A DNA stretch of 64,000 nt from a virus, in IMG/VR virus record IMGVR_UViG_3300044712_000792, positions 1 to 64,000 of that record; one strand, written 5' to 3'. The number at the start of each line of letters is the position of its first letter. Position 1 is the first letter of the stretch. Below the pieces are notes generated by a model. That model did no database searches. It had not been told where the DNA came from and saw only the letters and a list, made by a program, of their open reading frames with translations. Made by a program: the position numbers and the translations under genes. Of the stretch, positions 39,046-57,328 are shown piece by piece.

Positions 39046-40161
39046 TTAACTCTCCCTTACCGTTACAATACCTGTTCTAGTTTCTATTTCCAAATTAGGT
39101 AATGTTACGGTCAGTTTCCATCTATACTTCCTAGCTTTTAGATATGCATGATGTGTTATAGCATCAGTAGACTCAAATACATAGACATAATCTGGCTGCG
39201 TATCCGTGTATGTTAATGCGGGTTCTGTAGCTGGAGGTACTATTTCAACTATACCTATTAAACCACTAGTAATTGTATTACCAGTTGAAGTTATTCTGTA
39301 TATTCTGTACTCTATAGCATCGCTAACCGCTGTCCAGGTCAAGGTAACATAATCATTATCTCCTAGAGGCGGAGCAGATGGGATTTGAACTTCTTGGGAT
39401 ATGATTAGTCGTCTAGCTGTAACAGCAACAACGATGTAAGTATATGTATATGCAGTAGATGTAGCCACTTTGGTTAATACAGCAGTAGGGGCTTCAAAGG
39501 CACATTTAGGTGTTGTTCCTCTAGTTACCCCTGTAAAATCTCCGTGATGTTTAATACAATAACAACCAGAGAACATTGTGTCATAAAAAAGTTCTAATAT
39601 CTGAAACTTTGAGGAACTAAAGATATAATCCTCAAATGTTATGGTTAAAATGAATGTGTCTTCCCAATAAAACGGCTTGAATTGCTTCCATGTAGTAATC
39701 AAATCTGTTGTCATTAAAAGAGTTACACCATTATTCAAATCTCCAATCCATTCAAATTCTGGTTCAATTTTAGCTGTCTTCTCTTGTAATCCGCAGGTTA
39801 AATACTTTCCCTTTAGATTAATCTTCTTCTTTTCTTCGGTAAGAACTAGTGTATTTTCTCTTGGGTTTGTTTGAACTTGTTTGTTAATTTTAGTGTTCTT
39901 GGCAGTTACCAATACGCTTACCCAAAATACTATCGGAACTGCCTCTAAATTAAGGTCAAATACAATGGAACTAGCCAATATGGTTAGGTCTTCTATTTCA
40001 GCTTTACCAACAACTCTATCATTTACAAAGAATAGAACATCTACCGAATTGCTAGATACTTCTTGTTTTGCATATAGTTCTTCTAAAGTTGTAATAGTAT
40101 CTTGTTCTACCGACCACTCTAATTTTAAGTCTTTATTGTTTATTGATTTTTCTACAATCAT
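39046..40161 (-). CDS. Putative virion structural protein with Fn3/Ig-like domain
   Basis: YTYIVVAV...VTLTWTAVSDAIEYRIYR; tail-module context. Confidence 0.6.
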   Translation of the reverse strand: MIVEKSINNKDLKLEWSVEQDTITTLEELYAKQEVSSNSVDVLFFVNDRVVGKAEIEDLTILASSIVFDLNLEAVPIVFWVSVLVTAKNTKINKQVQTNPRENTLVLTEEKKKINLKGKYLTCGLQEKTAKIEPEFEWIGDLNNGVTLLMTTDLITTWKQFKPFYWEDTFILTITFEDYIFSSSKFQILELFYDTMFSGCYCIKHHGDFTGVTRGTTPKCAFEAPTAVLTKVATSTAYTYTYIVVAVTARRLIISQEVQIPSAPPLGDNDYVTLTWTAVSDAIEYRIYRITSTGNTITSGLIGIVEIVPPATEPALTYTDTQPDYVYVFESTDAITHHAYLKARKYRWKLTVTLPNLEIETRTGIVTVRES

Positions 40162-40688
40162 TCAGTAACCTTATGTTTTTCCATAAATCGTATAATTTTT
40201 TCTTTATCTGGCCCTTTAGCAAACCCAAAACTAGTCAGATTCCAATTACATGCTCTATAAGGGTCCGCCCCTAGTTTTATTAGAAATTCCACATTATCAA
40301 AATCACCCATATCACAAGCACACATTAAAGGTGTGATGCCATTTTTATTACCATAATCAGCACTACAACCACCATCAATTAATTTTTGCAATAACACCCT
40401 ATCAGTAATTCTAGCCCACATAGCAAAATGTATTATAGTATTCCTATAATTTTTTGTTTTAGCCTTTAAATTTAGCTTTAGGTCTTTTGCATTATTAAGC
40501 ATAAACCTAGCCATATCAATTCTATTTTCGTTGAGCATATGGGCTAACAAAGGAATTTCATCATCGCTATATCTATTAGTAACATAAGTGTTAGCAGAAA
40601 CACCATTATCTAGTAATTCATATAATTGTCTTAAGCTATTTTTCTCAACAGCTTCCGTTAGTTTTTCTATTACATTTTCTATTGGCAT
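40158..40688 (-). CDS. Ankyrin-repeat protein
   Basis: LLDNGVSAN, NTIIHFA, NGITPLMCAC...VEFLIKLGADP. Confidence 0.9.
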   Translation of the reverse strand: MPIENVIEKLTEAVEKNSLRQLYELLDNGVSANTYVTNRYSDDEIPLLAHMLNENRIDMARFMLNNAKDLKLNLKAKTKNYRNTIIHFAMWARITDRVLLQKLIDGGCSADYGNKNGITPLMCACDMGDFDNVEFLIKLGADPYRACNWNLTSFGFAKGPDKEKIIRFMEKHKVTE

Positions 40689-40689
40689 T

Positions 40690-41094
40690 TTACATCACAT
40701 TATTGCTTGAGAAATTGAATAAGAACTGTTGGTCGGTTGAGGTTTCAGTATTCCTTACATTCATAACAATTATCATTTTTACATTGTAATCTTCTGTATC
40801 ACCAACTGGACTGAATGTTATGTACAAAGAATCCACAGCTAAATATGACAGATATTTTTTCATTTGTAAGGTTATTATATTACGAATTTCTTGGATTACT
40901 AGGTCTGTTGATGGGGCAAACAAGTAACTTCTTATGCCTATACCGAACTCTGGGTATCCTACTCTTTCACCTGGAACAGTCATAAGTAGCTGATAAATAT
41001 TGACATACATACCTTCAACAGAACTTCTATCTGTGCCTTGAAAATATCCATCGGTCATAGATTTTTTGAAAGGTATTAAAATGCTATTTGGCAC
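40690..41094 (-). CDS. Baseplate wedge/sheath initiator (gp25/gpW-like)
   Basis: LLMTVPGERVGYPEFGIGIRSYLF. Confidence 0.9.
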   Translation of the reverse strand: MPNSILIPFKKSMTDGYFQGTDRSSVEGMYVNIYQLLMTVPGERVGYPEFGIGIRSYLFAPSTDLVIQEIRNIITLQMKKYLSYLAVDSLYITFSPVGDTEDYNVKMIIVMNVRNTETSTDQQFLFNFSSNNVM

Positions 41095-41097
41095 TTA

Positions 41098-41322
41098 TCA
41101 CTCCTTTTGTTTATATTCTTTACGGTCATTCAATATAGCAGAACCTTCATATTGTATCAATAATGTTATTTCAATAATCCCTGTTTTGTTGTCCCTTGTT
41201 GCTGAAATTGTTTTAACATCATTTACCGAACCCCACCTTCCTTGACAATTTTCCAAAATTTCGTTAATCTCTTCCGTTACATCGCTTTCGCTACCTTTGA
41301 ATGTCTTGATTAAAACCTTCAT
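41098..41322 (-). CDS. Hypothetical protein
   Basis: AAGGAG SD on minus strand. Confidence 0.55.
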   Translation of the reverse strand: MKVLIKTFKGSESDVTEEINEILENCQGRWGSVNDVKTISATRDNKTGIIEITLLIQYEGSAILNDRKEYKQKE

Positions 41323-41451
41323 AAGTCTCCTTCACGAGTTTTGGTGTCAATTTCTTGAACCGGGCTTTACTTTATATTCTTTTCCGAATTAGAATAGAAT
41401 ATAAGATAAATGGTTATTTACCTTGAAATATAAGAAAAAAAGGGGTCAATT

Positions 41452-44400
41452 ATGGTCAAATTAATAGAGGCAGACATTCCTGTTAGAATATTGCTTTCTG
41501 AAGCTAAATTGAGAGATGTATATGAACAATATAAGCTAACAGATGAAGAAAAACTGTATTTTAACCAAATCATTGAAAAACAAAGACATTTACAAAAATA
41601 TATGCCACACATAATAAAATTCATCAAAGAGGATGGGTATGCCCCAAGTGTAGTCTTTGAGATATTCAATCTGTTTGAAAAATACAAAGATGTTGTCCCA
41701 CATAAAGACTTTATGGATGCTAAATATTATTCTACGCTTTTAGACTTTAGACAAGCAATAAAAGTAGCACAAAGAGAGAAAAAAGCAGCTGTAATTGGTG
41801 GAGTAAACCCTAGTGTTGTTGAACGAATTGAGAATGGATTAAAACAGTTTTCAACAACAACATTTCTAGTTTCTGAAACAGACGAATATTGGGTTATTTA
41901 TATTGGGTCGTTTCCAGCTAGTGTTTATTTCTGTGAAGAACCTAGAAAACAGACATCAAAACTCGGTGGACCTCCTTGGTGTATTGGAGCCCAAGAAGGC
42001 AATTACAATAACTACCATCGTGATTACAAATCGTGTTTTTTGATTCAACCCAAAGATGGATATATGAAAAGCACCATTTTCTATGCTAGTGCTACCGCTC
42101 TTGAAAGAACAGATATTATGAACACAATGCATTATGATGAAGGTCCCTGGCATGGTGTCCTTAAGGTAATCAGAGAAAATGAAATGGTGAAAAAGATTTG
42201 GGAGGTTAGAAGGGCGCAGCCTAGTCTTGCTATAAAAGATGTATCATTTTTTGTTATATCTGGTATTCCTGTTGGGACAGATTCTATGAAAACAATTGAA
42301 ACGCTAATAGAAAAAGAAGGAATAACTTTAACAAAAGATGAATGGGAGGAAATAAAGAAAAGTCCACAAACAGTTCTATCAAGAATATCATCTTGTCCTA
42401 GTAATAAAGGGTTTTTTTATTGGATAGCTTATGCTGGTATTTGGCCAGAGTATTATGACATTTATTGTAAGGGTAGTGCTAAATTGTATGATTCAAAACT
42501 ACCATTCAAATTGAAAGTAGACTTGGTGAAAGCAGGGTCAAATTATGGAACACATTTAATGTATTCGTTTGGGACATTAATGAGCAAACTTGGTGACATT
42601 AAAGTTGATGATTTTCTTGACGAAGCAACCGTTGCCACACTATTCAACGAGTACAAGAAAGACAATAATAACACTTTAGAACTATTGTCACAACTTAATT
42701 TTGATACAAAGGAAGAAAAACTTATTGATTTCATAAGATTCGCTGTTGCCCACCCAAAACTTCTTCGTTCCCCAGCTACAGCTAATAGTATATTTCATGA
42801 TGCTAATGCCCATCTTGCCCATTTTACAGCAAATTTAATGCTTCAAACACTACAACTGTTAGAAAAAAAGGTTAAAATATCCGATATACTAAAAAAATTA
42901 GTTCCAGAAACAGATTATGAAACAAAAATTATAGCATATAATTCTATGGGTTTACCTGCTTGGGAGATGACACAAGAAAATTTAGTAAACGGTAGCATAG
43001 AGGCTGTCGCAGAGATAGAAAAGAATCGTGCAACCCTAAAGAAAGGTTATAGTATAGAGTATTTGAAATTGTATGTGTTTACATATCCAGAGTTACTCCC
43101 AATACTATTATCGGAACACAATTATGCTCAAACATTTAAGAATTTCTACAATATTACCGCAGAAACTAGAGATAAATTTGTTAAATTTTATGTTTCTATA
43201 CCTCAATCTTATAGAGATTTGTTTGAGAAAATACTTACCGATATTGGGTACACTACTGATACGGCATTAGTAGAATCGTTTATGGAAGCTTATAAAGCAG
43301 ATGCCTCATTTTTGGATGAAAAACAGATATACACAATCTTTAAACACGCTATTAACAACTATGGTAATGGTTATTTTTCTTGGATTAACGGCCCTTTACA
43401 ACAGTTATTTACAGACCCAGCAGTTAAAAACCCTATGAGTAACGCTATAAATTTTTACCCTAGAATATTTAGACCTATTGAAGGAACAGCTAACTTCAAA
43501 AAAATAATACAACAATATAATAGATTTCAAGATGCTGTGCGTTATGCTTCAAGTCATGATGTTAGACCAAGTTCAAGAACTTGGGGTAATAATTTAACTT
43601 TTGAAATGTTGCAAATGTATACAGACCAGCAACTTACAAATATGTATATGCTAACAAATTATCTTTCATTTAGCCCAGACAACGAAACTACTCAAGAAGT
43701 CATATATATGTTTTCTAATGAAGTAGTTGCTGCATTTGTAGCATCTAACCCAAAGATAAAAGATATTAATAAAGTAGGTCTAATATTTTTCAATTTAAAA
43801 AAACTATTGAAAACAGAAGAAAAAATGTTAGAATACTTAAAATCAAATGTGGTTAATGATGTTATAGCTGATTGTGATTCTCTTGAAGCTCTGGAAACAC
43901 TTGGTAAGTTTGGTGCGTTCCTTATAGCTGCAAATAAAGAAAAGTTTGAAAAATTCCTAGCCGAAACAAAAGAGTGGAGTTCTGGGCTTATAAAGTATCT
44001 TTTAGCTTTTCAATATGGCACTTTAGATAATGGAGTAATAGATGCAATTTTAAGGCATAAATCGGTTTTTGAAGAAGCGTTCAAAACTAGTACTTTTAAG
44101 GATTTCCCAAATTCGTTAGTCCAACAAGCCTATAATATGTTTTCTTATAATGTTTATCATGGTGGTGGTCTGTCTAATGTTGAAACTATTAAGCTATTCC
44201 TTTCTATGGATTTTAAGAATTTAATAGAACCATTAGACCTAGCAAAGCAAAACAATTTATGGAATTGGATGGCGTATGCTGTTGGTAGGACTTCTTCATA
44301 TAGCAGTAGTATGCCTACTGTTGGTTCTCCTGCTGCGGTAACATCAATAACTAAATTACAAGAAATGGCATTCAAATTACCTAAACTAATAGCATTAGCA

Positions 44401-45645
44401 AAGCAATTAACCCGAATGGAAACATTAAAACGTCAAGATGGTGGGGTTAAAAGACTTTATACCAATATTGATTACATTTTAGCTTTTAGCGAAACCTTGG
44501 AGATAGGGAAAATCCTTTTTGATGGTGTATATGATACCCCTACTATAGATAAAAAATTTGCTAAAGTGGCGAGCCTTAACTTAAAACACCCCGGATATGC
44601 TATGTTACATATGCTACACGGAGTAATAAAGGCAGAAGTACTAAAAAGTTTAGATGAATATATGCCAGCGATTATGACAATACTTAAATGGGATTATGCA
44701 AAACTACAAAATTTGTTGGGTAAAATAAACATATCTGATATAGCAGAAGCTTCACAGAACAATACACTAGAAGAACTCTTGTCAAACCAAGAATACATAC
44801 ACATAACCTTACCAAATTGCTTGTATGATTTACTCCAATTTGCGGAAGATGGCGATTATCATTACGGAATAGCTATAAATGCTATACCAGAGGTTGGTAT
44901 TGCAACCTATTCAAACACAGAAGTATCGTTGGTGGCTTTACATAAAACTATTAAATCAAAATCTATTGTAGTAATTTTAAAAAATCATAGGTTTGTTTTA
45001 CCTAATAGGAGTAAGGGTAGAAAATCTAGTGATGTTAATATTGTTATTGAAAAATTTAAGGCTAGTATTTCTGATGTAAAGTTTTTTGATAAGTTTAATG
45101 ACGATAAGTATAGTGGTCGCATTGAATTAATCAAACATTTAGTTCCAGATAATAGTCAAGAAATAGATAAAGTAGTATCTCATATTTTATCTACTTGGGA
45201 TAATTCAATGAAAGGACTTGGCAGGAAAATACAGGTATATGTTATGTTTTATGGGGATTCTAGTGGTATTACGGTTAATAAGTTATTGGTAGATTTTATA
45301 GAGGCGAATCTTAATGCAGGGTTTTTGGGTAGCCTTCTAAATGCATATAATTACTATATGCCAACCATTTCAAAAGAGAAAAAAACAAGGTTCTGGTATA
45401 TAGCAGGGTTGGCTTGTGTGTTTGGTGTTAAAAACAATATTGATGTCGCAAAAATAAGTGGATGGACACCAGTCCTTTCACAATTAAAAATGGCTAGTTT
45501 GACATTTGATTTAAAGGATACAATTAAACAGATATTCAATTTGCGAGTTCCGTTACTAACTTCAATAGAGAAGTTAGAAATATCATCAAGTAACAAGCAT
45601 GCATTAAAAACTCTTATGAATTTAGAAGGTATAGAACAATGGTAA
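41452..45645 (+). CDS. Giant hypothetical protein, paralog 1 of 3 (N-terminal WCIG domain)
   Basis: 1397 aa; colinear similarity to the next two ORFs. Confidence 0.85.
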   Translation: MVKLIEADIPVRILLSEAKLRDVYEQYKLTDEEKLYFNQIIEKQRHLQKYMPHIIKFIKEDGYAPSVVFEIFNLFEKYKDVVPHKDFMDAKYYSTLLDFRQAIKVAQREKKAAVIGGVNPSVVERIENGLKQFSTTTFLVSETDEYWVIYIGSFPASVYFCEEPRKQTSKLGGPPWCIGAQEGNYNNYHRDYKSCFLIQPKDGYMKSTIFYASATALERTDIMNTMHYDEGPWHGVLKVIRENEMVKKIWEVRRAQPSLAIKDVSFFVISGIPVGTDSMKTIETLIEKEGITLTKDEWEEIKKSPQTVLSRISSCPSNKGFFYWIAYAGIWPEYYDIYCKGSAKLYDSKLPFKLKVDLVKAGSNYGTHLMYSFGTLMSKLGDIKVDDFLDEATVATLFNEYKKDNNNTLELLSQLNFDTKEEKLIDFIRFAVAHPKLLRSPATANSIFHDANAHLAHFTANLMLQTLQLLEKKVKISDILKKLVPETDYETKIIAYNSMGLPAWEMTQENLVNGSIEAVAEIEKNRATLKKGYSIEYLKLYVFTYPELLPILLSEHNYAQTFKNFYNITAETRDKFVKFYVSIPQSYRDLFEKILTDIGYTTDTALVESFMEAYKADASFLDEKQIYTIFKHAINNYGNGYFSWINGPLQQLFTDPAVKNPMSNAINFYPRIFRPIEGTANFKKIIQQYNRFQDAVRYASSHDVRPSSRTWGNNLTFEMLQMYTDQQLTNMYMLTNYLSFSPDNETTQEVIYMFSNEVVAAFVASNPKIKDINKVGLIFFNLKKLLKTEEKMLEYLKSNVVNDVIADCDSLEALETLGKFGAFLIAANKEKFEKFLAETKEWSSGLIKYLLAFQYGTLDNGVIDAILRHKSVFEEAFKTSTFKDFPNSLVQQAYNMFSYNVYHGGGLSNVETIKLFLSMDFKNLIEPLDLAKQNNLWNWMAYAVGRTSSYSSSMPTVGSPAAVTSITKLQEMAFKLPKLIALAKQLTRMETLKRQDGGVKRLYTNIDYILAFSETLEIGKILFDGVYDTPTIDKKFAKVASLNLKHPGYAMLHMLHGVIKAEVLKSLDEYMPAIMTILKWDYAKLQNLLGKINISDIAEASQNNTLEELLSNQEYIHITLPNCLYDLLQFAEDGDYHYGIAINAIPEVGIATYSNTEVSLVALHKTIKSKSIVVILKNHRFVLPNRSKGRKSSDVNIVIEKFKASISDVKFFDKFNDDKYSGRIELIKHLVPDNSQEIDKVVSHILSTWDNSMKGLGRKIQVYVMFYGDSSGITVNKLLVDFIEANLNAGFLGSLLNAYNYYMPTISKEKKTRFWYIAGLACVFGVKNNIDVAKISGWTPVLSQLKMASLTFDLKDTIKQIFNLRVPLLTSIEKLEISSSNKHALKTLMNLEGIEQW

Positions 45646-48600
45646 AAAAACTTATTACCGAAGCTAGATTAAGGGATGTTTATACCAAATACAACTTGAC
45701 TGACGATGAAAAAACCTATTTTAATAAGGTCATTGAGAAGCAAAAATTTATGCAGAAGTATATGCCACAAATTGTCAAATTCGTCAAACAAGATGGGGAA
45801 GAAGCAGATTTTGTTCTTGATGTATTTAATACATTTGAAAACTACAAGGATAAGGTTGAACATAAGGACTTTTTAGACGAGAAGGCTTACCCAGATTTGT
45901 ATTCGTATAGGGCTGCTGTTAAAAACTTTATGACCACAAAACGAGTAGCATCAAATCCTATCAGAGAAAATGTTGAAAATGGGCTAAACCAATTCAGCAC
46001 AACAACTTACCTTGTTAAAGAAACAGATAATTTTTGGCTTATTTATATAGGTTCTTTTCCAGCTAGTGTGTATTTCTGTACAGAACCAAGAAAAGTAACG
46101 GGTCGTCTAGGAGGCTCACCTTGGTGTATTGGTGCTAATGAAAGTAACTATAATGGTTATCACGATGGTGGCAATTTGTGCTTTATTGTAATGTTTAAAG
46201 ATACATACGATAAAAGCACCATTTATTATGCAAATAGAAGTGGGTTTACTAGAACAGACATTATGAACCACGCATACAATACTGATGCTGGTACTATTTG
46301 TGATGGTGTTTATCAGATTATAAAAGCAGACCCTATGGTAAATAAACTGTGGGATGCTAGAAATAAAGTGGGTAACTCAATACCAATAAGTTTTGTGTCT
46401 TCTTTTGTTTTAGCTGGAATGGAAGTATCTTCAGATAAGAATTTGTTATTAGATGCTGTTTTGAAGAAGCACAATATTCAACTTAATGGGGAAGAATTAG
46501 ACCTATTAAAAAGAAGGTTTAGTATCTCTGCTACAACTGTTTTGAATTATATGAGTGAAGCCCCTACTAAAGAAGATTATTGGCATTGGGTTAGAGTGTC
46601 AGCAACAATGCAAGGCCAGGGCCTACTAGTAAGTCGTAATTTGAGTAAGCTATTGTATAATTCAAAAGTTCCATTTTCAGTTAAGAAAAAAATAGCAAGA
46701 GCTCCAGATGGTGGTGCCCCTGATATGTGGTATAGATTTTCATATCTTATATACCCCTTAAATATAGATGACCTTGATTCTTTGTTCCCTGGTGATTTGC
46801 TATCAGAGTTTATTGAGGCTACTACGCCAACTTTAATGAGAAATGAGATTTTTAATTGGTTTTATGCGAGTGCTGGACTTGAATTTTCAGAGTACAAAAA
46901 AGAAGAACTTATTGGATTACTTGAATTTATTAAAACAAATCCTTCCTTCGTTTCTGCAATTCTTGGTAGTATCAGTAAATTTAGCAAATTTACTGTTGGG
47001 TTATTGCTACAAGCGTTTAATCTTTTATTGAAAAAAGAAGCAAATGTTGATACTATGTTAGATAAGCTAGTTCCTTCTACAGAATATGAAACTAAAATAT
47101 TAGAGATATTGAAGATAGGTTCGTTAAGCACTTGGAAACTAACAAAAGAACAAGTAATGGCCGCCGATTTGGAAGTATTAAAACAAGTAAATGAAAAAGC
47201 AAATATAGATATAATTGTACAATATGGACTATCTCAATCTGCAATTAGATATCTTACACTTAAATACCCTAAAATTATAACAATACTAAAAGAAGCACAT
47301 AAATTTCTTTACAACACAGGTTTTATTGGTGGACAGGGGGAAGAAGAATTTATCACAGGATTATTAAAATTCCCACCAGAACAAATACGGGAGTTTAACA
47401 AAGCATTTGAATCAACAGGCTATTCTATGGATAATGGAATTGCTTATTGTTTGGGTTGTTTATTCAAATCTGATATAAGCTTTTTATCCCCAGAGTTACA
47501 AATTAGTTGTGTGCGCTGGACAATAAATAGCTATGGTAATGAATATTTTTCTTTCAGTAGAGGCTTGTTAAGGAATGTGCCATTTTTTCCAAAACAGAAA
47601 GAGGTTACACTACTCCCTAACATATTTGACCAACCTATTATGATGTTCAAACCAGCAGAAGGAACTGCCAATTTTAAAAAGATTCTAGCCAACTATGAGA
47701 AATTTCTTAATGCAATTTTTTATGTTCAATCTAGTGGTTTGACATTAAACTATCAGACAGAATTTTTTAGGTCTATGTCATATGAAACCCTCTCAATGTA
47801 TTCAGAATACCAATTAACAAATCTATTTTTGTTATCACCTTATCTATCAAATCAACAAGAAAATGATGAGACCAAAGATGTAGCTTTAAAATACTCTAGA
47901 AGATTAATACTAGCATTCTTGAAAAGCCTACCACGAATCTCAAATATAAACCATGTTGGACCTTTACTTAACAAATTAAAGGGTTTGTTGGGCACAGAAG
48001 AAAAAATGATTGAGTTTATGAGTAGCCATTCTATTAGCACTAATATGATTCACTTGAAAACTATAGAGCAAATGGAAAAACTATCTAGATATGGTATGTT
48101 TAATTTAACAGCTAGTTATGAGAATATGGAAGCCTTTTTTTCAGAAACAGAAGATATATATGTTGAAGTGGCTAGATATATGAAATTGTCAGGCATTTCA
48201 GAACTAAACAATTCGGTTATTACAGAAGCATTAAAAACTATTGGATTGTTCAGAACTGAAGTTAAAAAAAGCAACTTTTTGAAGCTATCTCCGATAAACT
48301 TTAATGCCGTAAACGCTTTTTGGTTAAATATGGTGTATAAAACAAATTCTAATTATATTTGGCTAACTGAACATATTAGCTTATTTTTCAGTATGGATTT
48401 TGAACGCCTAGACCGTATGGCACCAGAATTTGTTAAACCAAACGCTTTTGCTGGTTGGCTACAAAGTTTCTATAATGGTGGGAATCTTTGGAATGCTGGG
48501 GACGAGAAGGCAAAATCTGCAATAGAAAATGCCTTAAATTATTTAGAATCCGTAATGCCAATCAGAGAGATGTTTAAAAAGTTGGGTGTGACAAATTATT

Positions 48601-49856
48601 CAAATGATGGGTCTTCTGGGGCTTCTAGGGTATTAAAATATGGTAAATTTCTATTAGACACCTGGGAAAACGATAAAGTAACTACAACCATCATTAAAAA
48701 TATACACGCAAATTCTTATTCTACATCTTGGATGCCAATTGTTGAAAAACTTCTTCCACAATTAAAGCACCCTAGTTATGCCTTTCTACCGCTTATCTTT
48801 TCTGGTGATGTAACTACCGAATCCATAATAAAAATTAATGACATTATGCCAATTCTTGTGGAAAAAACTAACTATGACTATTCTAAACTTTTCTCTTTGT
48901 TACAGCATTTGACTACTGAAGAGATAAAAGAAGCTATTGCTAATAACACATTTGATGATATTATTGATATTACAAATTATAGAAAAATTATATTACCTAG
49001 TTGGCTTGGGGGTATAACAGTAATAAGTGAAACAGATGATTTTATCTATGGTATTGCCTTCAAAACGCTTAATCCACTTATCACACACCCTTCAACAAGA
49101 GATAAAATAAATCTTGTTGCAATACACAAAAGTTTACCAAATAAAAGCGTATATGCTATTTTGGAAAACCATGTTATTACCTTGCCTGCTGGAAGCACAA
49201 TAGACCCAATAGACCTTCAGCCTTTGATTAAAGAGTTCAAACATATGTTAAGTCAAGAACATATCATTAAGAAGTTGATTTCAGCAGGTTACCCTTCTTA
49301 TATTAGTGCTATATACCCTAACGACTTGGCAACAAAAGAAAGAATATGTAAATTTATCTTCTCCAATAGTCTTAACAACAACTTTATGATTGATATGGCT
49401 AACAAAATTGCTCTGTATATTTCTATGTACTACAAAAGTGGAGAACTCGAAATAAATAAAATGCTAATGGACTATTTAGAAGGATTGGTAACTAGAAGTG
49501 ATGCCCCAAGTGGACACATTGACACTATGCTAGGTGGTAGTCAATATTATAAGCCAAATATGGAGTCTTCTAAAAAAACACTCTATTGGTTTGTTTGTTG
49601 TCTTGCTATACTGTTGGGCATTAAAAACGGCATAGACATACGAACTAGAACTGCGTTTGATAACTATTATAACTACTTAAGGCCTAGTTTTCTTACTATG
49701 GACGGTAGAAGTATAATAAAGGATATGTTTGACCTTAAACCTCCCATTTTAGATTCAATAGATAACTTGGTTCTCCCGGGTAACGAAGATACAAATACCC
49801 ATAATAAAGGCGTCATTAAAATGCTTTTGGGCTTGGAAGGAATTAAAGAATGGTAA
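45639..49856 (+). CDS. Giant hypothetical protein, paralog 2 of 3
   Basis: 1405 aa; YIGSFPASVYFC, PWCIG, EGTANFKKI and LKHP shared with paralog 1. Confidence 0.85.
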   Translation: MVKKLITEARLRDVYTKYNLTDDEKTYFNKVIEKQKFMQKYMPQIVKFVKQDGEEADFVLDVFNTFENYKDKVEHKDFLDEKAYPDLYSYRAAVKNFMTTKRVASNPIRENVENGLNQFSTTTYLVKETDNFWLIYIGSFPASVYFCTEPRKVTGRLGGSPWCIGANESNYNGYHDGGNLCFIVMFKDTYDKSTIYYANRSGFTRTDIMNHAYNTDAGTICDGVYQIIKADPMVNKLWDARNKVGNSIPISFVSSFVLAGMEVSSDKNLLLDAVLKKHNIQLNGEELDLLKRRFSISATTVLNYMSEAPTKEDYWHWVRVSATMQGQGLLVSRNLSKLLYNSKVPFSVKKKIARAPDGGAPDMWYRFSYLIYPLNIDDLDSLFPGDLLSEFIEATTPTLMRNEIFNWFYASAGLEFSEYKKEELIGLLEFIKTNPSFVSAILGSISKFSKFTVGLLLQAFNLLLKKEANVDTMLDKLVPSTEYETKILEILKIGSLSTWKLTKEQVMAADLEVLKQVNEKANIDIIVQYGLSQSAIRYLTLKYPKIITILKEAHKFLYNTGFIGGQGEEEFITGLLKFPPEQIREFNKAFESTGYSMDNGIAYCLGCLFKSDISFLSPELQISCVRWTINSYGNEYFSFSRGLLRNVPFFPKQKEVTLLPNIFDQPIMMFKPAEGTANFKKILANYEKFLNAIFYVQSSGLTLNYQTEFFRSMSYETLSMYSEYQLTNLFLLSPYLSNQQENDETKDVALKYSRRLILAFLKSLPRISNINHVGPLLNKLKGLLGTEEKMIEFMSSHSISTNMIHLKTIEQMEKLSRYGMFNLTASYENMEAFFSETEDIYVEVARYMKLSGISELNNSVITEALKTIGLFRTEVKKSNFLKLSPINFNAVNAFWLNMVYKTNSNYIWLTEHISLFFSMDFERLDRMAPEFVKPNAFAGWLQSFYNGGNLWNAGDEKAKSAIENALNYLESVMPIREMFKKLGVTNYSNDGSSGASRVLKYGKFLLDTWENDKVTTTIIKNIHANSYSTSWMPIVEKLLPQLKHPSYAFLPLIFSGDVTTESIIKINDIMPILVEKTNYDYSKLFSLLQHLTTEEIKEAIANNTFDDIIDITNYRKIILPSWLGGITVISETDDFIYGIAFKTLNPLITHPSTRDKINLVAIHKSLPNKSVYAILENHVITLPAGSTIDPIDLQPLIKEFKHMLSQEHIIKKLISAGYPSYISAIYPNDLATKERICKFIFSNSLNNNFMIDMANKIALYISMYYKSGELEINKMLMDYLEGLVTRSDAPSGHIDTMLGGSQYYKPNMESSKKTLYWFVCCLAILLGIKNGIDIRTRTAFDNYYNYLRPSFLTMDGRSIIKDMFDLKPPILDSIDNLVLPGNEDTNTHNKGVIKMLLGLEGIKEW

Positions 49857-52800
49857 GAAAACTTATTACCGAAGCGTCTCTTAAAGAATGGTATGCTAAA
49901 TTTGGCGTTACTGCTGATGAAAAAGCTATTTATGATGATATAATAGCTAAACAACCATATATGCAAAAGTATATTGGCAGAATTGTAAAATGGCATAAAG
50001 TTGATAGAGAAAAGCTAAAGGATATTATTGACAACCTAATCAAGTTTGATGAGAACATTAAGAATATTGCAGATAGAGATATATACTCAAAGAAATATGA
50101 GTTCCTAGATGCAGTAAAAGAAGTCATTGAGAACCTACCAAAATGGTTTGATAGGCTTAATATACCGAAAGAGTTTGAGAAGATATTGGCAAGACACCCT
50201 AAAGATGCCTTTAAACTCACAGAAACAGCCGATTACTTCGTGTTCTATATAGGGTCATATGATGCCTCTACCGACCTTTGTTATTACCCAAGGCTTTATA
50301 CTGACTATTTACTATCAATTCACACTCCTAGCACAAATAATGGTTGGTGTATAGGACAGCCTAATACTAGAGGCTTCTTTGACGGACAGAGGGGTTCAGA
50401 TGGGTTATATTTCCTAGTTCAATATAAGACCACTTTCAAAAAAAGCTGTATCTATATTCTTCATTCTGATGGTAGTTTCCGTAGGCATAATGTCCATAAT
50501 TACCCTGGTAGTGGTTTTCCTGATGAACAAGAACCTGGTATAATGAAGATGGCATTTGACGACGAAAGGATAGTGAAAATATTTGCGGAACAAAAAAGGT
50601 ATGCTTATCGTATGATTATAGATTTCATCTCTTGGAAAGTTATTGGTGGTATGGAAATCAAAAGTGATTTTGATGTATTACTAAATGTCCTAAATGACAA
50701 ATATCAACTTGGTTTGACGGATGAACAAAAAGCAAAATTAAAAGATTTTAATGCAACATTAAACTCTGGTGCGTGGACATCTTCTAGAAACATAATCAAT
50801 AGAATTTCGGCACATCCCAAGATAGAAAGATATTTCTTATGGATGTCTGCTGGTTATGGCGATTATACTTTAGACAAACCAGTAATGGCGTATTTTGAAA
50901 TGATTTATAAGTGTAAAAACCTTACTAATGATATGAAACAGCAACTTACTAATAGACCTGCTGGACACATTAAATTAAACCAAGATATTACCTATGATGA
51001 CCTTATAGCTAGCCCAGAAACTCAAATACCTGTAGATAACTTAAAAGACTTTTACAGTTTTGTTCTACCATATATAGACAAGAGTGATAAAACTAATCTA
51101 CCTAAAGCGGTTTTACTTTATAATAAACTTATTGGGGAGGGTAGAAGGGATAAATTTATTGATGATAGTGGTCGTTTTATGGTTAGAGGACTTAATGTTG
51201 ACTTGTTAATTTCTTTATTTGAAGCTGTTCTAGAAAATCCAAGGATACTTTTTAAGACTTGGGCTAAAGAAACAACCCCAAACAATGACTATGAAAACAT
51301 TATACTTGAGATTATAAGAAAAGATTTGTTTAGAGGAAAGCCTTTAACCCCAGAAGTTATTAAAGCACTTGATATTTCAATGATTGATTCTATGAAAGAG
51401 AAACTAGGAACAGTATTTTCAAGTACAAGTATGATTAATGACGCCTTATATTTCTTTTGTTTATTCCCACAAACTTCAGATAATTATAAGATATTTTCTC
51501 ATATAGCAAGAAATTACCATGATGTTCCTTATGAGGATATGAGAGATTTGTTGAATGTTTTGACACCACAACAAATAAAAGAATTCAATTATTGTTTAGA
51601 CCCAGACCATTTTGGATATACTTACGATAAAGATATGATGAGAAGGATATATGTTATCTTTGGTGCTGAACAAAAAGAGTTCCCCACAGATGTAACAAGG
51701 CGTTTGATGCAAGCAGGTTTAACTAAAAGTAATGGGAGTTGTTTTGCAATTGCTTGTAAAGAAATATTAGGAATGACCACCACAGCCTCATCAGTTTTAA
51801 ATACAACATTAAACAATAGTCCTATGGAATATATAACAGTTAATACATATAAAAGGGCTAAAGTTGTTGCAGAAAAGATTGTTGGTTCTTTGAGTTTAAT
51901 CCCCGGCACTATTTCCTTTAGGTTTAGTAGTAACTGTAGCTTCTTTAATATTGACAATGTGTTAGCATTAAAAGAGCAAGAATTGGCTAATGCTATAATC
52001 TATTCTAGCGGTATTCCAGGGGAATCAGTTTATTTAATGCCGTTCTTGAGAGAGTTTTCACCTGAATTTATTGCTACACTAATAGATTTACAAAATAATA
52101 GTTTGGATATAGAAGACTATTATGTTGCTCTAGAGGTCTTCTTGAACTTAAAAAAGATACTAGTTGAAGAAGAAAAAATATTAAAATTTTTAGGGACAAT
52201 AAATAGACTTGATAGTTCCTTATTGCTAGCAAGTACTGTTGAAGAATTAGAACAAGCAAAATTGTTTGTTGGTATTGCTATGTCTTTCCCAGATGTAGAG
52301 ACAAAGAAAACATTATTGAAGGCTATTGCTGGTGCTGAAAAAGAATTGTTATTTGCCTTTAAGGTTCACAGTCTAATACTAACGAAAGAAGTTATTGACC
52401 TGTTCTTAAGCAAAAAAGAGGAGTTAATAAAAGCATATAACAATAACTTCATTTTCAATTGTGAGTATAGTGGAGATAAAGCTAAACAGAAAATATCCCG
52501 TTTTTTTATGCCTATGATTAATACATATTTACACAATTTTTGGACAAACTACTATAATCCAGAATACATAAATGCATTAAATAACTTTGATTTTGAAAAA
52601 ACATATCCTATTTTGATGAGTATATGTGGTGGTTCAATAAGGAATTCTTCTTGCCCTCTAATTAGTGCTTTTGTCCCTGGCACTGGAACTTTAGTCGGAA
52701 CACTAGAAAAAAACCTTAAAAAATATGAAGAATTTGTATTAACACAAGCAGAGAAATTGAATGTATTAATTAAAAACTCAAAATTCAGCGGTATATTACT

Positions 52801-53980
52801 TACTTCTGGTGATAGGAATACTTATAGAGTGATAAAATATGCGGATTGGATTATAACATATTCTGATACTACAGTAATTAATACTGTGTTATATTACATT
52901 ATGTATAGTACACAAAGTTCTATAGATGACACCATTAATTTGCTTGCAACGGCTGGAATTAAGCATCAAGGCTATGCCGTACATCACACCATCCGACCAT
53001 ATCTTGATAATATAGAACTCATTAAAGGTCTTGATAGCTTCTTACCAGAGATATTCAAAGAATTTAGTTTCTCATATGATTCAGACACAGAAAAAAGTTC
53101 AATGTTTGCACAATTATTACGAACAAAAACAGCACCAGAAATTATAGAAATTATCAAAGAAAAGGGTGCTGTTGAAAAGGCTGTAAGAGAATCAGCACAA
53201 AAAAGCTATAACGAAGCCATTAAGGAAACATTAAAGGGTAATGTGATATTTAAGGAAACAAATGAGAATCTGTATGTTTATAGGTTGGCTACTTCAAACA
53301 ATTTGATATTTAAAAAGCATGCTGGTAGCTTGCCAGATATTTCACAAGAATATTTTTCATTTATGATTGTAAACAAGGAAAACGAGATTGAGAATTGTCA
53401 TTATCAAATGGGTTCAGATTTAAGACTTAAGCAAACATCTAACACAGCTTGTTCTGTTTCTGGGGATTTGAAAACATCTTTTATAGAATGGGCACAAACA
53501 CCAGAAGGTTTTAGTATAGTGTTAGCAACCCCAATAAGAAGCGATGTGTTTATGGCTGTGTATGGCAATAACAATGAACTAGTTATGGAAAAAATGCTAG
53601 CTTTAGAACTCTATGTTTCTGTTAGCTTTGATGATTGTATGTCAATATTCCAGTTGATAAGAGGACAAAAAGTGGTGGATGATGAATTGATGAATTACCT
53701 TATGGAGAAGGCTGATGTTAAACAGACATATAGAAAGGCTACTGATGGATTGCCTAACAAAGCATTTTATGTTGATTGTGCTGTGATTTGTTGTATAGCT
53801 AGGAACGACGCTAGTACTAATATTGATGATGTTAAAACGGCATTATCACCAAGAACTGATTTTGATGCAATAGCAATGAAGGTATTTGATGTGCCAGAAA
53901 TAACAAATGCTGTCATAGATGGATTACACCTTGACGATGACCACAAGGCTATGTTAAGAAAAATGAGAGCTAACTTTTAG
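49850..53980 (+). CDS. Giant hypothetical protein, paralog 3 of 3 (more divergent)
   Basis: 1376 aa; LITEA, MQKY, YIGS, WCIG, IKHQGYA. Confidence 0.85.
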   Translation: MVRKLITEASLKEWYAKFGVTADEKAIYDDIIAKQPYMQKYIGRIVKWHKVDREKLKDIIDNLIKFDENIKNIADRDIYSKKYEFLDAVKEVIENLPKWFDRLNIPKEFEKILARHPKDAFKLTETADYFVFYIGSYDASTDLCYYPRLYTDYLLSIHTPSTNNGWCIGQPNTRGFFDGQRGSDGLYFLVQYKTTFKKSCIYILHSDGSFRRHNVHNYPGSGFPDEQEPGIMKMAFDDERIVKIFAEQKRYAYRMIIDFISWKVIGGMEIKSDFDVLLNVLNDKYQLGLTDEQKAKLKDFNATLNSGAWTSSRNIINRISAHPKIERYFLWMSAGYGDYTLDKPVMAYFEMIYKCKNLTNDMKQQLTNRPAGHIKLNQDITYDDLIASPETQIPVDNLKDFYSFVLPYIDKSDKTNLPKAVLLYNKLIGEGRRDKFIDDSGRFMVRGLNVDLLISLFEAVLENPRILFKTWAKETTPNNDYENIILEIIRKDLFRGKPLTPEVIKALDISMIDSMKEKLGTVFSSTSMINDALYFFCLFPQTSDNYKIFSHIARNYHDVPYEDMRDLLNVLTPQQIKEFNYCLDPDHFGYTYDKDMMRRIYVIFGAEQKEFPTDVTRRLMQAGLTKSNGSCFAIACKEILGMTTTASSVLNTTLNNSPMEYITVNTYKRAKVVAEKIVGSLSLIPGTISFRFSSNCSFFNIDNVLALKEQELANAIIYSSGIPGESVYLMPFLREFSPEFIATLIDLQNNSLDIEDYYVALEVFLNLKKILVEEEKILKFLGTINRLDSSLLLASTVEELEQAKLFVGIAMSFPDVETKKTLLKAIAGAEKELLFAFKVHSLILTKEVIDLFLSKKEELIKAYNNNFIFNCEYSGDKAKQKISRFFMPMINTYLHNFWTNYYNPEYINALNNFDFEKTYPILMSICGGSIRNSSCPLISAFVPGTGTLVGTLEKNLKKYEEFVLTQAEKLNVLIKNSKFSGILLTSGDRNTYRVIKYADWIITYSDTTVINTVLYYIMYSTQSSIDDTINLLATAGIKHQGYAVHHTIRPYLDNIELIKGLDSFLPEIFKEFSFSYDSDTEKSSMFAQLLRTKTAPEIIEIIKEKGAVEKAVRESAQKSYNEAIKETLKGNVIFKETNENLYVYRLATSNNLIFKKHAGSLPDISQEYFSFMIVNKENEIENCHYQMGSDLRLKQTSNTACSVSGDLKTSFIEWAQTPEGFSIVLATPIRSDVFMAVYGNNNELVMEKMLALELYVSVSFDDCMSIFQLIRGQKVVDDELMNYLMEKADVKQTYRKATDGLPNKAFYVDCAVICCIARNDASTNIDDVKTALSPRTDFDAIAMKVFDVPEITNAVIDGLHLDDDHKAMLRKMRANF

Positions 53981-56375
53981 ACTGTTTTTCAAAATCGGCT
54001 GTGCTATTGATATTTAGCTTCTTTATGGAGAAGTTCTTAACATTAACAGCAAAGTTCTTATCACCTGTTCTATACCATTTGCGATTTGAAGCTATCTTTT
54101 CTTTGACTGTTTCAAGTGTAATCTCTTCCCCTGCTGAAGCCATTTCTAATACTTGGCTTCTAACCATATCACCGCCAAATTTAGTGGCTAACAAAGCTAC
54201 ATCTTTCCTAGCTTGCACATCTTCTATGTCATCCATTTTAGAGAAATTTTCGCAGTAATTGGTTAGGATTTCTTTTGTTGTTTGTGTCTGTGAATTGTAG
54301 TATTGTTGTATGGAATTCTGTGAGGTATTAGCCCCTAGATTTTGTGGGTTATCATAAGACTTACCACCAGCATTAGTCTGTATTGTATTTGAAATATTTG
54401 CTAGTTCCTCATTAGAGAATAGACCTAGAACACCACTATAAATACTACTTAATTCGCTTATAATACCACCAATCAAATTTCCAAAAATGGCGGCGATACC
54501 CAAAGCACCCAATAACCATTCAAGGTAATTAGTTATCTTTAAGAAGGTTAAAGCTTGCTTTCTAGGAATAATGTCAACACTTATGGAAGATGGTGTTTCA
54601 ACTAAACCCGTGGTTGAATTAAACTTAATACCACTTGAACTTGTTTGCAGTTCTGGTCCTACACATCCATCATCAGGACCTAAATTGGCAATTTTTAAAA
54701 CCTTTAATTGATGTGTCCACATACCTTCATTCAATGTTTCTGATATACCATTAATCATATATATCCCTCTTATCCAAGGCAATAACGCTGGTGAGTATTC
54801 ATCAAAATCAATAGCGATAACTGTTCCTATCATAGTGCATAAGTCGGGGTCTCCAAGAACTTCTAAATTTCCACCAATACCTAACATAGCTACACTATCT
54901 ACGGACTTAACAGAATCCGCCTGCGCTTCATTAGTAGTGTCTTCTGGATTTGCTGGTGAATCTGTTTTAGGTAATGGTTTACAAGCAGCACCACCTTCTC
55001 CAGCAATTTGTTGCGTTCCTGTTGTTGTAGAATTTTCTTTCGGTAAATCTGTTTCTGGTATCTTTTGTTTTGGTATATTTTGAGGGCCGCCTCTAGCCAC
55101 ATATAGTCCGAACACATTATTAGAATCTAAATCAAATCTAATTACTGTAGCGTGTGGACTTCTTATTGGAGTGGCATATATGAAGTATTTTATTACTTCT
55201 TGCTTACCTGGGATAGTATCAGAACTTATAGCAGTTTCTTCAGGGGCAACTGTAATAGCACAAAAAGTTGAATTCTTGGGAACACGAAAACTTTTTTTAT
55301 CCTCTTCACCGATTCGTATTTTAAAAGCATCTGTGTCCGCAATGGTTGTCATCTGTACCCAACTCTCCCCATCAAAAACAAGATAATCAGTAGGGCTACC
55401 AGTCATACGACTACCAACAGTCATTTCTTTGAATTCATATTTTACCTTTTCTTCTGTTGGATAATCTGTTTTTACTTTGTCACAAATCCAAGACTTAAAT
55501 GGTGCTGTTCCGGGGTTCCAGTCAGCAAAACTTTTAGCTTTGCCTTTCCAAACAGTAGTATCTCCGTTATAGGCAGATTGTGGCAAAAATGTCTCATTTG
55601 TATTATCTGTAATTAAATAATACTTCCCACTTTTTCCAAATATATCATTACCAGCTTTATGTTGCATTTTCCAAGCTTCTATTAATGCTTGAGGGAATGT
55701 TATATCTCCACTAGCACTATCAGTTCCAGATTGGTTTTGTGAATCTGGCGGTGCTAATTGCCAACAACTTATTGTTGTGTTCATTTTAGTAGAAACTGAA
55801 TCTACAAAAGTAAAGGTATAAGTAGCACCAAAATATTCAACATCTACTGTTAAATCAAACAAAGTCAAATCATCGCCTAAAGGTGCCCCGTAAGTATCTA
55901 GATAAGTTGGGTCACTACTTTGCCAACCATAAACCATACTCATCATCACGCTAGCTTTATCACCATTTTTTAAAGCGTTCATATAGACATTCATTAAAGA
56001 ACAATCTAGTAATCTACCTTGAGGGTCATAAATAATAAGTTTAACGGTATTTCCACCTTCCGATACATTCCTCTCAATATTGACTTGTCTTAAAAAGTTT
56101 CTTGTTTGTTTTCCATCATCTGTAACAAACATTCTATAAATGGCATCATCATACAAAACACTAGACTGTTCTTCACCTTCTTCAACTAAAATATCCCCAG
56201 AAGGGTTTGGGTACAATCTGATATATCCTATTTTATTATCATATTTATCAATCCATTTAAGTATTATGCGAATATCAGTTGTTATTACAGGGATAAAAGT
56301 ATCAGAAGAAACTCTAGTAGCTTCTACTAAAGCTTCATTGTAAAGGGGGTAGCCGAAAGAGAATTGGGTTGCCAT
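53970..56375 (-). CDS. Baseplate hub protein (gp27/gpD-like) with C-terminal extension
   Basis: LEVLGDP...RGIYMINGISETL....WTHQLKVLK typical hub C-terminal strands; follows gp5. Confidence 0.65.
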   Translation of the reverse strand: MATQFSFGYPLYNEALVEATRVSSDTFIPVITTDIRIILKWIDKYDNKIGYIRLYPNPSGDILVEEGEEQSSVLYDDAIYRMFVTDDGKQTRNFLRQVNIERNVSEGGNTVKLIIYDPQGRLLDCSLMNVYMNALKNGDKASVMMSMVYGWQSSDPTYLDTYGAPLGDDLTLFDLTVDVEYFGATYTFTFVDSVSTKMNTTISCWQLAPPDSQNQSGTDSASGDITFPQALIEAWKMQHKAGNDIFGKSGKYYLITDNTNETFLPQSAYNGDTTVWKGKAKSFADWNPGTAPFKSWICDKVKTDYPTEEKVKYEFKEMTVGSRMTGSPTDYLVFDGESWVQMTTIADTDAFKIRIGEEDKKSFRVPKNSTFCAITVAPEETAISSDTIPGKQEVIKYFIYATPIRSPHATVIRFDLDSNNVFGLYVARGGPQNIPKQKIPETDLPKENSTTTGTQQIAGEGGAACKPLPKTDSPANPEDTTNEAQADSVKSVDSVAMLGIGGNLEVLGDPDLCTMIGTVIAIDFDEYSPALLPWIRGIYMINGISETLNEGMWTHQLKVLKIANLGPDDGCVGPELQTSSSGIKFNSTTGLVETPSSISVDIIPRKQALTFLKITNYLEWLLGALGIAAIFGNLIGGIISELSSIYSGVLGLFSNEELANISNTIQTNAGGKSYDNPQNLGANTSQNSIQQYYNSQTQTTKEILTNYCENFSKMDDIEDVQARKDVALLATKFGGDMVRSQVLEMASAGEEITLETVKEKIASNRKWYRTGDKNFAVNVKNFSIKKLNINSTADFEKQSKS

Positions 56376-57328
56376 TATATTATACTCAAACTTCCTGTAA
56401 GTGTAGCCATACCAGTAATTTTAATGGTTGGGGCAGTTATGGTTAATAGAGGGGTTGTCATTGTTATTGAAGTGGTGGCGGTGTCAGTAATTGTAGTGCC
56501 TTCAATAGAGGTCATACAAGATTCATTTCCTACCATAGTTTGAACCATACCTTGAACTGTTGAATTTTGAGTTCCTGTGATAGAACAATCTTGCGTGGCT
56601 ATGGCAGTAATATCTTCTTTAGCTGTCATAAATATGTTCTTTGCCATTAATGTTAAAGTCTCTTTACACATAATAGTAATATTGTCATTTTCGGCATCCA
56701 TAAGGATTGTATTACCATGTTTATCAAGTGCTTGGATTCTACAACCCTTTTGCCCTTCGTAAATAGTGATTTCATTGCCTTTAGCACCACAACAAGTAAT
56801 AAGTTCTTCGTCTTTCTGGTCAGAGATTATAACCTTACGATTACCTGGGGTTCTTAACTCTATTTGATAATGGTCTTTTTCTTCTCTGCATTGTATTATA
56901 TGACCGTTTGGAGTCTGCCAACCCCAAGCATTAGGAACTACACCATCTCCTTCATATCTGTCATAAGCCTCAATAGATTTAGTATCTTGCTGATACCACC
57001 CACCAATTATTACAGCATTGTCATTGGCATTTACCGAAGGTTCAAATAAAACGAATACTTTTGCACCAGTAGGATAAGGTAGGTAAGAACCATACTTTTT
57101 ACCGCTCTCCTGACCTCCACCAAAGGCATTCATTGTCCAAGCCCATACCGATTGCTTGTCTGGAGCTATAGATGGCGTTAAACCCTCAATAAGCACCTTA
57201 ACACGCCCAAACTTGTCTGGGTCTACATTGTCAACTATTACACCACGATACAGAACTCCTCTTTTGGGGAATTCAGCATCTTGGTTAATCCATTTAAAAT
57301 ATTTTGCTTGTAATGCATCAACAGGCAT
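56375..57328 (-). CDS. Baseplate central spike (gp5/gpV/VgrG OB fold + beta-helix)
   Basis: YRGVIVDNVDPDKFGRVKV, P.GA.VFVLFE, IIGG, TPNGH, repetitive Thr/Ile beta C-terminus. Confidence 0.9.
   Translation of the reverse strand: MPVDALQAKYFKWINQDAEFPKRGVLYRGVIVDNVDPDKFGRVKVLIEGLTPSIAPDKQSVWAWTMNAFGGGQESGKKYGSYLPYPTGAKVFVLFEPSVNANDNAVIIGGWYQQDTKSIEAYDRYEGDGVVPNAWGWQTPNGHIIQCREEKDHYQIELRTPGNRKVIISDQKDEELITCCGAKGNEITIYEGQKGCRIQALDKHGNTILMDAENDNITIMCKETLTLMAKNIFMTAKEDITAIATQDCSITGTQNSTVQGMVQTMVGNESCMTSIEGTTITDTATTSITMTTPLLTITAPTIKITGMATLTGSLSII

Follow-up and report, generated by a model that had tools for sequence, protein, structure and literature searches.

Three giant paralogous proteins with a shared N-terminal module in an uncultured T4-like phage

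The giant gene trio

The stretch of DNA analyzed here (the window) is the first 64 kb of the 84,696-bp linear IMG/VR virus record IMGVR_UViG_3300044712_000792, the completeness of which was estimated at 41% by CheckV. An initial annotation, made from the sequence alone, had pointed to three consecutive giant open reading frames (ORFs) on the plus strand of this window, and all three were present exactly where that annotation had placed them (1397, 1405, and 1376 aa; Table 1). The trio covers 12.5 kb, about 15% of the recovered fragment, and encodes soluble, near-neutral proteins of about 160 kDa that are rich in Leu, Lys, Ile, and Glu and low in Gly and Pro; no transmembrane segments or internal repeats were found by sequence analysis of the three proteins. 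Their reported location between the hub and gp25 genes was right in that baseplate genes flank the trio, and inexact in that a small minus-strand ORF separates the gp25-like gene from paralog 1 and an unassigned 801-aa gene precedes the gp5-like gene. Paralog 3 and the convergent 801-aa gene overlap at their ends by 11 bp.

The relationship among the three proteins was examined by BLASTP. Paralogs 1 and 2 aligned over their full length with 32% identity (464/1438; expectation value (E) = 0), and paralogs 2 and 3 with 25% identity over residues 1–612 (E 5e-37). Paralogs 1 and 3 shared 27% identity over residues 11–326 (E 3e-24) and 24% in a middle block (residues 754–1082, E 6e-11), and no significant alignment to paralogs 1 or 2 was obtained for the last ~300 residues of paralog 3. 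The paralogy of the trio far exceeds compositional similarity, and the pairwise check proposed with the initial annotation was answered clearly by these values. The whole-length colinearity it had claimed holds for paralogs 1 and 2; paralog 3 is colinear only in its first ~610 residues and in the one middle block. The motifs listed as common to all three (QKY, YIGS..AS, WCIG, YE..I, GY..D, LK..L..EEK, and KH..YA) were recovered as invariant columns of a three-way alignment, and EGTANFKKI was indeed exact in the BLASTP alignment of paralogs 1 and 2. Paralog 3 was the first to branch off, and paralogs 1 and 2 separated later.

Both gene junctions consist of the same 7-bp overlap, ATGGTAA, with GAAGG 10–12 nt upstream, as had been noted, and this arrangement probably serves translational coupling. 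Serial duplication followed by strong divergence, the origin originally proposed for the trio, is supported by the pairwise BLASTP results, the three-way alignment, and the identical junctions. We conclude that the trio is a real, ancient, and translationally coupled duplication, in which each protein consists of a widespread, previously undescribed N-terminal module joined to a giant orphan body. No related phage without the giant genes turned up for comparison. Only one base differs between paralogs 2 and 3 over their initial 26 nt (45639–45664 and 49850–49875), despite the 25% identity of the two proteins, which suggests that the restart site is under nucleotide-level constraint for translational restart or has been subject to local gene conversion. 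At the N-terminus of paralog 1 (41452–41510), two leader-like copies, MVKLIEA and then VRILLSEA, stand in tandem, and paralogs 2 and 3 have one such copy, MV[KR]KLITEA; the first 10 codons of paralog 1 look like a duplicated leader.

The giants stood alone in all sequence collections searched. Pfam and PHROGs contained no family for them, PDB sequence searches with a single protein and with profiles gave nothing below an E of 0.27, and megablast and tblastn against 50,697 GenBank phages detected no relative. Among 5.8 billion protein clusters, a word-indexed search recovered the query and paralog 2 alone, and a HMMER profile of the first 1070 residues, run against all 1.84 billion representative proteins, gave three matches, namely the three giants themselves. 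Pattern scans of IMG/VR (two alignments) and of JGI metagenome contigs (one alignment) yielded no relatives of the giants, and in the ESM Atlas the module matched unnamed viral clusters only and the body matched nothing. The ~1,050-residue bodies also matched none of the record's remaining ORFs and nothing in 42 huge-phage loci, and had no similarity to the bodies of the P0007-like proteins described below. Across roughly 15 billion catalogued proteins the giants are without a relative, and their bodies are orphans, found only in this lineage. The bodies are probably mostly helical because of their Leu/Lys/Ile/Glu-rich and Gly/Pro-poor composition, and, since so much sequence has stayed open for so long, the 12.5 kb of coding sequence suggests selection.

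The N-terminal module and its relatives

The N-terminal part of the giants, which we call the WC module, was also found in two other proteins of the same phage, P0004 (355 aa) and a 327-aa protein encoded outside the window. P0004 showed 25% identity to paralog 3 over 224 residues (BLASTP, E 6e-11), and its tail gave a weak Ank_2 match at residues 257–335. A hidden Markov model (HMM) of the four N-termini of the giants and P0004 retrieved the 327-aa protein at E 1.8e-10 from among 276 ORFs, with the next match at 0.05. The module is about 230–330 residues long; the [WF]-C-I-[GA] motif is invariant across the five carriers, and only a handful of positions are strictly invariant, namely K-Y, K, Y, P, R, and, within the [WF]-C-I-[GA] loop, C-I. 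An AlphaFold2 model from the five-sequence alignment (mean predicted local distance difference test score (pLDDT) 73.7, predicted template modeling score (pTM) 0.60) placed six helices, a beta hairpin, and two helices before the WC loop, and a helix, three strands, and helical hairpins after it. The 327-aa protein has one relative of 61% identity (324 aa) on a 1,057-bp ENA contig, and therefore a kindred phage exists that has barely been sampled.

A six-frame profile search of LR756511.1, the 595-kb genome of an uncultured phage, detected a 1076-aa protein, P0007, with a segment, SWCIARSD.SNMFYTYRF, similar to KWCIARPDKHNMFASYTF in the 327-aa protein. For the N-terminal 260 residues of P0007, at least 196 relatives of 50–80% identity occur on metagenomic contigs of up to 595 kb. 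The C-termini of this P0007-like family vary in length and content, several carrying ankyrin Pfam domains, and its gene contexts were compared at 42 IMG/VR loci and in one GenBank record. When the five modules were aligned by hhalign with 120 family N-termini, the probability was 88.4% (E 2.8e-6) in local and 95.5% (E 4.8e-9) in global mode, and the reversed-sequence control gave an E of 0.82. The family HMM retrieved the 327-aa protein at E 2.1e-6 among the 276 ORFs (next match 0.5), and the five-sequence HMM in turn matched 119 of the 120 family members. On the strength of these profile comparisons we accept that the module of this phage is homologous to that of the P0007-like family, the giants being tied to the family only transitively, through P0004 and the 327-aa protein.

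Both groups share a helical arm, a segment ..IYYADSP.A.. that aligns with ..IYIGS..AS.., the W-C-[IV] motif, beta strands, and helical hairpins, and a model of P0007 residues 1–365 (29 sequences, mean pLDDT 80.2) showed the same order of elements as the phage module. Variable C-termini that include ankyrin repeats are likewise common to the family and to P0004. In contrast, family members are 50–80% identical to each other in the module and only ~17% identical to the modules of this phage, the bodies of the giants have no counterpart among family bodies, and LR756511.1 has one copy where this phage has five. The residues Y118, A119, C125, W136, C137, R140, N145, R151, K163, H191, Q196, and others are invariant in the family. 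All three giants retain W-C-[IV], the 327-aa protein alone retains the longer segment WCIARPD.HNMF..Y.F, and the giants show no evident counterpart of most of the polar residues invariant in the family; beyond the WC loop, their alignment to the family is too weak for the other invariant positions to be scored. The P0007 N-terminus found only itself by tblastn against GenBank phages, and no Pfam or PHROG model, solved structure, or paper was found for the family. The main interest of the locus lies in this large, unannotated module family of huge phages that it exposes and in the extreme isolation of the giant bodies. Since the module occurs in hundreds of huge-phage proteins, working out its role would annotate the whole family at once.

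In fold searches with Foldseek, the best matches of the two module models in the PDB had E values of 0.05–0.3, with no convincing match and no PcfJ structure among them; no new fold is claimed from these searches, which used models of the whole module. The failure to recognize any catalytic family, already remarked on in the initial annotation, thus recurred in Pfam, PHROGs, and PDB searches by sequence and by fold. The suspicion of an undescribed system fits the orphan bodies and does not fit the N-terminal module, which belongs also to two other proteins of the phage and to a large huge-phage family. In BFVD, a database of predicted viral structures, nine matches had an E of 1e-3 or lower, all of them uncharacterized proteins of jumbo or uncultured phages; several came from the same genome, one had a leucine-rich-repeat tail, and one was a PA5oct protein annotated as “structural protein”. 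A Marseillevirus ankyrin-repeat protein came next (E 1.2e-3), and more than 10 “PcfJ like” proteins ranked below the uncharacterized jumbo-phage proteins (E 0.011–0.3, template modeling (TM) score about 0.2). Phages represented among the BFVD matches include Caulobacter phage CcrBL9, PA5oct, and the Myoviridae sp. ctWb16 lineage.

The PcfJ-like group bears on a loose resemblance to PcfJ-like domains that had been noted in the initial annotation from the conserved Cys motif. The comparison gained some ground from these weak fold matches and from the Cys loop: in pCF10 PcfJ and seven phage PcfJ-like proteins, a [HW]-C-[VI]-G loop followed by three strands looked alike by eye, and the PcfJ domain (PF14284) has a helix and three strands after the loop, as the WC module does. 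It lost ground in the profile searches. No PcfJ match was obtained by hmmscan of the giants, P0004, and the 327-aa protein at E ≤ 1, or when all six frames of the complete record were searched with PF14284 at E ≤ 10 (the Pfam membership cut-off for PcfJ is 25 bits). Alignment by hhalign of the five-module alignment, a further alignment, and the 120-member family to eight PcfJ C-terminal domains gave E values of 0.15–0.24 at probabilities below 1%, and alignment to the single pCF10 PcfJ was not significant (E 0.16). The domain is, moreover, C-terminal in PcfJ proteins, unlike the N-terminal WC module. A relationship of the module to PcfJ is therefore possible; it would give no function, because no study of PcfJ function was found in the literature, and a comparative review of jumbo phages made no mention of PcfJ or ankyrin. 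In pCF10 (locus L012, 35873–37983), the PcfJ gene overlaps the end of a gene annotated as a Cas9 inhibitor of the AcrIIA9 family, which hints that PcfJ may sit in an anti-defense neighborhood.

Expression signals and possible roles

Two classes of promoter-like motif were recognized in the record. The class B motif, A[AT]AGAATATAA[AG], occurred 11 times in the 84.7-kb record, compared with 4.2 times in shuffled sequences, and eight of the copies lay 20–55 nt before start codons. It stands before paralog 1 and the small gene divergent from it, before the gp25-like gene and the gene of the 327-aa module protein, and before two ankyrin-containing operons. Its sequence resembles, and may be a relative of, the T4 late promoter motif TATAAATA, whose 10 scattered matches in the record were themselves uninformative. 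The class A motif, TGTATTTGTTTTAATA, lies 15–30 nt before the ribosome-binding site (RBS) of at least nine plus-strand genes of replication and nucleotide metabolism, and is confined to such genes; TTTGTTTTA occurred 23 times, compared with 4.3 times in shuffles. Class A is probably an early or middle promoter of the phage. A scan for consensus sigma-70 promoters and terminators was uninformative (65 sites against 68 expected). We infer from its distribution that class B works as a promoter, and because it is common to the giant operon and to structural genes, the two look co-regulated.

The explanation that we prefer, though tentatively and at less than even confidence, is that the giants are made late and are associated with the virion, with a common module for docking, loading, or catalysis and a variable body for target binding. 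The function suggested in the initial annotation, virion cargo or host-takeover or anti-defense effectors, is still plausible. The three genes would form one translationally coupled operon of diverged paralogs, each encoding an N-terminal module of ~330 residues and a soluble body of ~1,050 residues. The module would be this phage's version of one that huge phages join to many C-termini, often ankyrin repeats, acting as a common handle (either a docking domain or an enzyme) beside a variable target-binding part; the proteins would be packed in or attached to the virion and act on the host at the next infection, by a logic like that of the T4 internal proteins and Alt. Late synthesis and virion carriage seem the most likely because the late-like motif is shared with the gp25-like gene and the position is inside the tail–baseplate block, where the giants are flanked by gp15-, gp25-, gp5-, and gp6-like genes. 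In the head gene block of LR756511.1 (locus L011, 510000–529000), a gp21-like protease, a 310-aa gene, a gp23-like major capsid gene, a 212-aa gene, and a 514-aa gene are followed by P0007 and a DNA methyltransferase, so that P0007 is the third gene after the major capsid gene and has the same orientation, and in three close relatives of LR756511.1 the capsid gene adjoins a family member. Further, [LI]-x-E, the form of the T4 prohead-protease site, occurs within residues 4–10 in five of five module proteins, compared with two of 89 other ORFs of at least 100 aa. The PA5oct “structural protein” among the fold matches is another hint of virion association.

The T4 internal proteins are diverse anti-defense proteins with only a capsid-targeting sequence in common, and the anti-host role of such packaged cargo is established for T4 (PMC3012670). 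The proteins described here are likewise diverse, have only an N-terminal part in common, with [LI]-x-E near the N-terminus, and come from a T4-like phage. They differ from T4 IPI–III and Alt, which are cleaved by the prohead protease gp21, in that the shared part is a folded module of 230–330 residues rather than a peptide of ~10 residues, that the giants are 5–15 times larger, and that the 41%-complete fragment carries no protease gene. Several observations weigh against virion carriage. The five [LI]-x-E instances are homologous, hence not independent, and in the alignment they do not coincide with the [LI]-N-E conserved in the huge-phage family. At most of the 42 IMG/VR family loci, neither a capsid nor a protease gene lies within 10 kb, and the neighbors there resemble the replication and metabolism genes of this phage. 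No head genes were seen in the record, and no RNA run was among the sequencing runs matched to the stretch. The giants, at 160 kDa, are far larger than the T4 internal proteins, and they are not encoded on the same strand as the baseplate genes. The link to the PA5oct “structural protein” is a low-TM fold match only, and a search of the PA5oct genome with the family profile found nothing.

Three other explanations were weighed against this one. Nearly as likely as virion association, and ranked just below it, is that the giants are unpackaged intracellular effectors, in which the module would be an enzyme or adaptor for host takeover, anti-defense, or competition between phages, the bodies would choose the targets, and the trio would reflect an arms-race expansion. 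Such a role, itself doubtful, would suit the strong divergence of the paralogs, the location of most huge-phage family loci among non-structural genes, and the many invariant polar residues of that family (C, R, D, N, K, H, and Q), which are enzyme-like; PcfJ-like proteins of Herelleviridae, too, lie among early and nucleotide-metabolism genes, and the pCF10 PcfJ gene adjoins one of the AcrIIA9 family. However, fold searches found no known catalytic fold, the giants by our reading of the alignments keep the WC motif while several other family-invariant residues are not evident, and the late-like motif and the location in the baseplate block better suit a structural or late role. That location, among gp25-, gp5-, and gp6-like genes, would also agree with the giants being structural accessories of the tail or baseplate, anchored by the N-terminal module with bodies and ankyrin tails projecting outward. 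Receptor-binding proteins that use one docking site typically combine a conserved N-terminus with a variable C-terminus, and the module proteins show this pattern as multiple tailspikes or fibers do; the late-like motif is present, and P0004 and the 327-aa protein are also encoded within the tail gene block. We nevertheless regard a structural role as unlikely, given that the bodies, rich in Leu, Lys, Ile, and Glu with little Gly and Pro, are unlike the beta-rich, Thr/Ser-rich 1345-aa fiber-like neighbor, that no fiber, spike, or baseplate family was matched in Pfam or PHROGs, and that the huge-phage relatives lie mostly outside structural modules, with a single copy in LR756511.1.

That the ORFs are artifacts of assembly duplication, or decaying pseudogenes open by chance, we consider highly improbable. 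The giants are known from one metagenomic contig, and the sole sequencing run that contained them may be the source sample. This reading was rejected, being contradicted by three frames of more than 4.1 kb that stay open at 33% guanine-plus-cytosine (GC) content, where stop codons are frequent, by identities of 32% and 25%, which are far too low for an assembly repeat, by the conserved RBS and start/stop coupling, and by a GC skew that fits coding on the plus strand.

Returning to virion-associated proteins, a more specific and more doubtful form of the idea is that the WC module is an undescribed domain, either a new Cys-dependent enzyme or a loading or docking handle, fused to interchangeable bodies (ankyrin repeats, leucine-rich repeats, or giant helical bodies), and that the trio is an arms-race expansion delivered by the virion. 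If so, the WC module would define a new and widespread class of modular phage effectors, and swappable binding bodies could let large phages direct one shared activity against various targets in the host or in rivals. Few cargo proteins of a T4-like phage would be larger than the giants, if these are packaged.

Source record and gene neighborhood

The source is, from its gene content, a distant, uncultured T4-like myovirus from soil. The stretch was detected in one sequencing run, a rhizosphere metagenome that is possibly the source sample. GC content is ~33% throughout, and the giant genes are compositionally indistinct. The left half of the window carries genes of replication and nucleotide metabolism (SbcCD-like proteins, a DnaB-like helicase, an RNA ligase, methyltransferases, and a glycosyltransferase), and tail and baseplate genes, mostly on the minus strand, occupy the part from ~37.5 kb onward (Table 1).

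Table 1. Features of the giant locus and its surroundings. Positions are those of the window, except where marked G000 (full-record coordinates) or L005 (L005 9084–10067 = G000 73084–74067).
Feature	Position	Strand	Remarks
Giant paralog 1 (P0001, 1397 aa, 160 kDa)	41452–45645	plus	RBS AAGGGG before ATG
Giant paralog 2 (P0002, 1405 aa)	45639–49856	plus	
Giant paralog 3 (P0003, 1376 aa)	49850–53980	plus	most diverged copy
Junction 1/2	45639–45645	plus	ATGGTAA, stop and start overlapping
Junction 2/3	49850–49856	plus	same ATGGTAA overlap
WC module of paralog 1	41482–42486	plus	helical arm, alpha/beta core with WCIG, helical hairpins
WC module of paralog 2	45639–46643	plus	part modeled by AlphaFold2
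WC module of paralog 3	49850–50884	plus	
Fourth carrier, P0004 (355 aa)	62332–63399	minus	WC module at residues 1–230 (FCIG), then ankyrin-repeat tail
Fifth carrier (327 aa)	G000 73084–74067	minus	outside window; found by hmmsearch
Late-like motif AGAATATAA (class B)	41396–41404	plus	47 nt upstream of paralog 1 start
Class B copies	20128, 24626, 41119(-), 41380(-), 41396; G000 74143(-), 74169, 79792		
Class A copies	3117–36340, e.g., 5992, 8339, 12543, 18737, 20451, 22611, 25150, 28878, 33019, 36340	plus	
gp15-like gene	37522–38592		in mainly minus-strand tail–baseplate block
gp25-like gene	40690–41094		in mainly minus-strand tail–baseplate block
Small extra ORF	about 41098–41322	minus	between gp25-like gene and paralog 1, divergent from paralog 1
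801-aa gene	53970–56375	minus	right-hand neighbor of giants, convergent with paralog 3
gp5-like OB-domain gene	56375–57328		after 801-aa gene
1345-aa protein gene	58291–62328	minus	product acidic, rich in Thr, Ser, Val, and Tyr; no family match
gp6-like gene	G000 64357–67029		in tail–baseplate block
Ankyrin-repeat genes	38593–39045, 40158–40688, 57814–58290, 63396–63944	minus	
Ankyrin-repeat genes	L005 10671–11096, 13176–13652, 15215–15775, 15849–16460	plus	

Among GenBank phages, the closest match of the gp6-like gene was in LR756511.1 (26% identity). For the 801-aa neighbor, neither a family match nor any close IMG/VR relative was found; because its residues ~618–640 are strongly hydrophobic, it may be a hub or tape-measure-like protein. 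The 1345-aa protein looks, by its composition, like a fiber or large baseplate protein. In addition to the P0004 tail, ankyrin repeats are encoded by at least eight small genes interspersed among the tail and baseplate genes, which is unusual for a soil phage.

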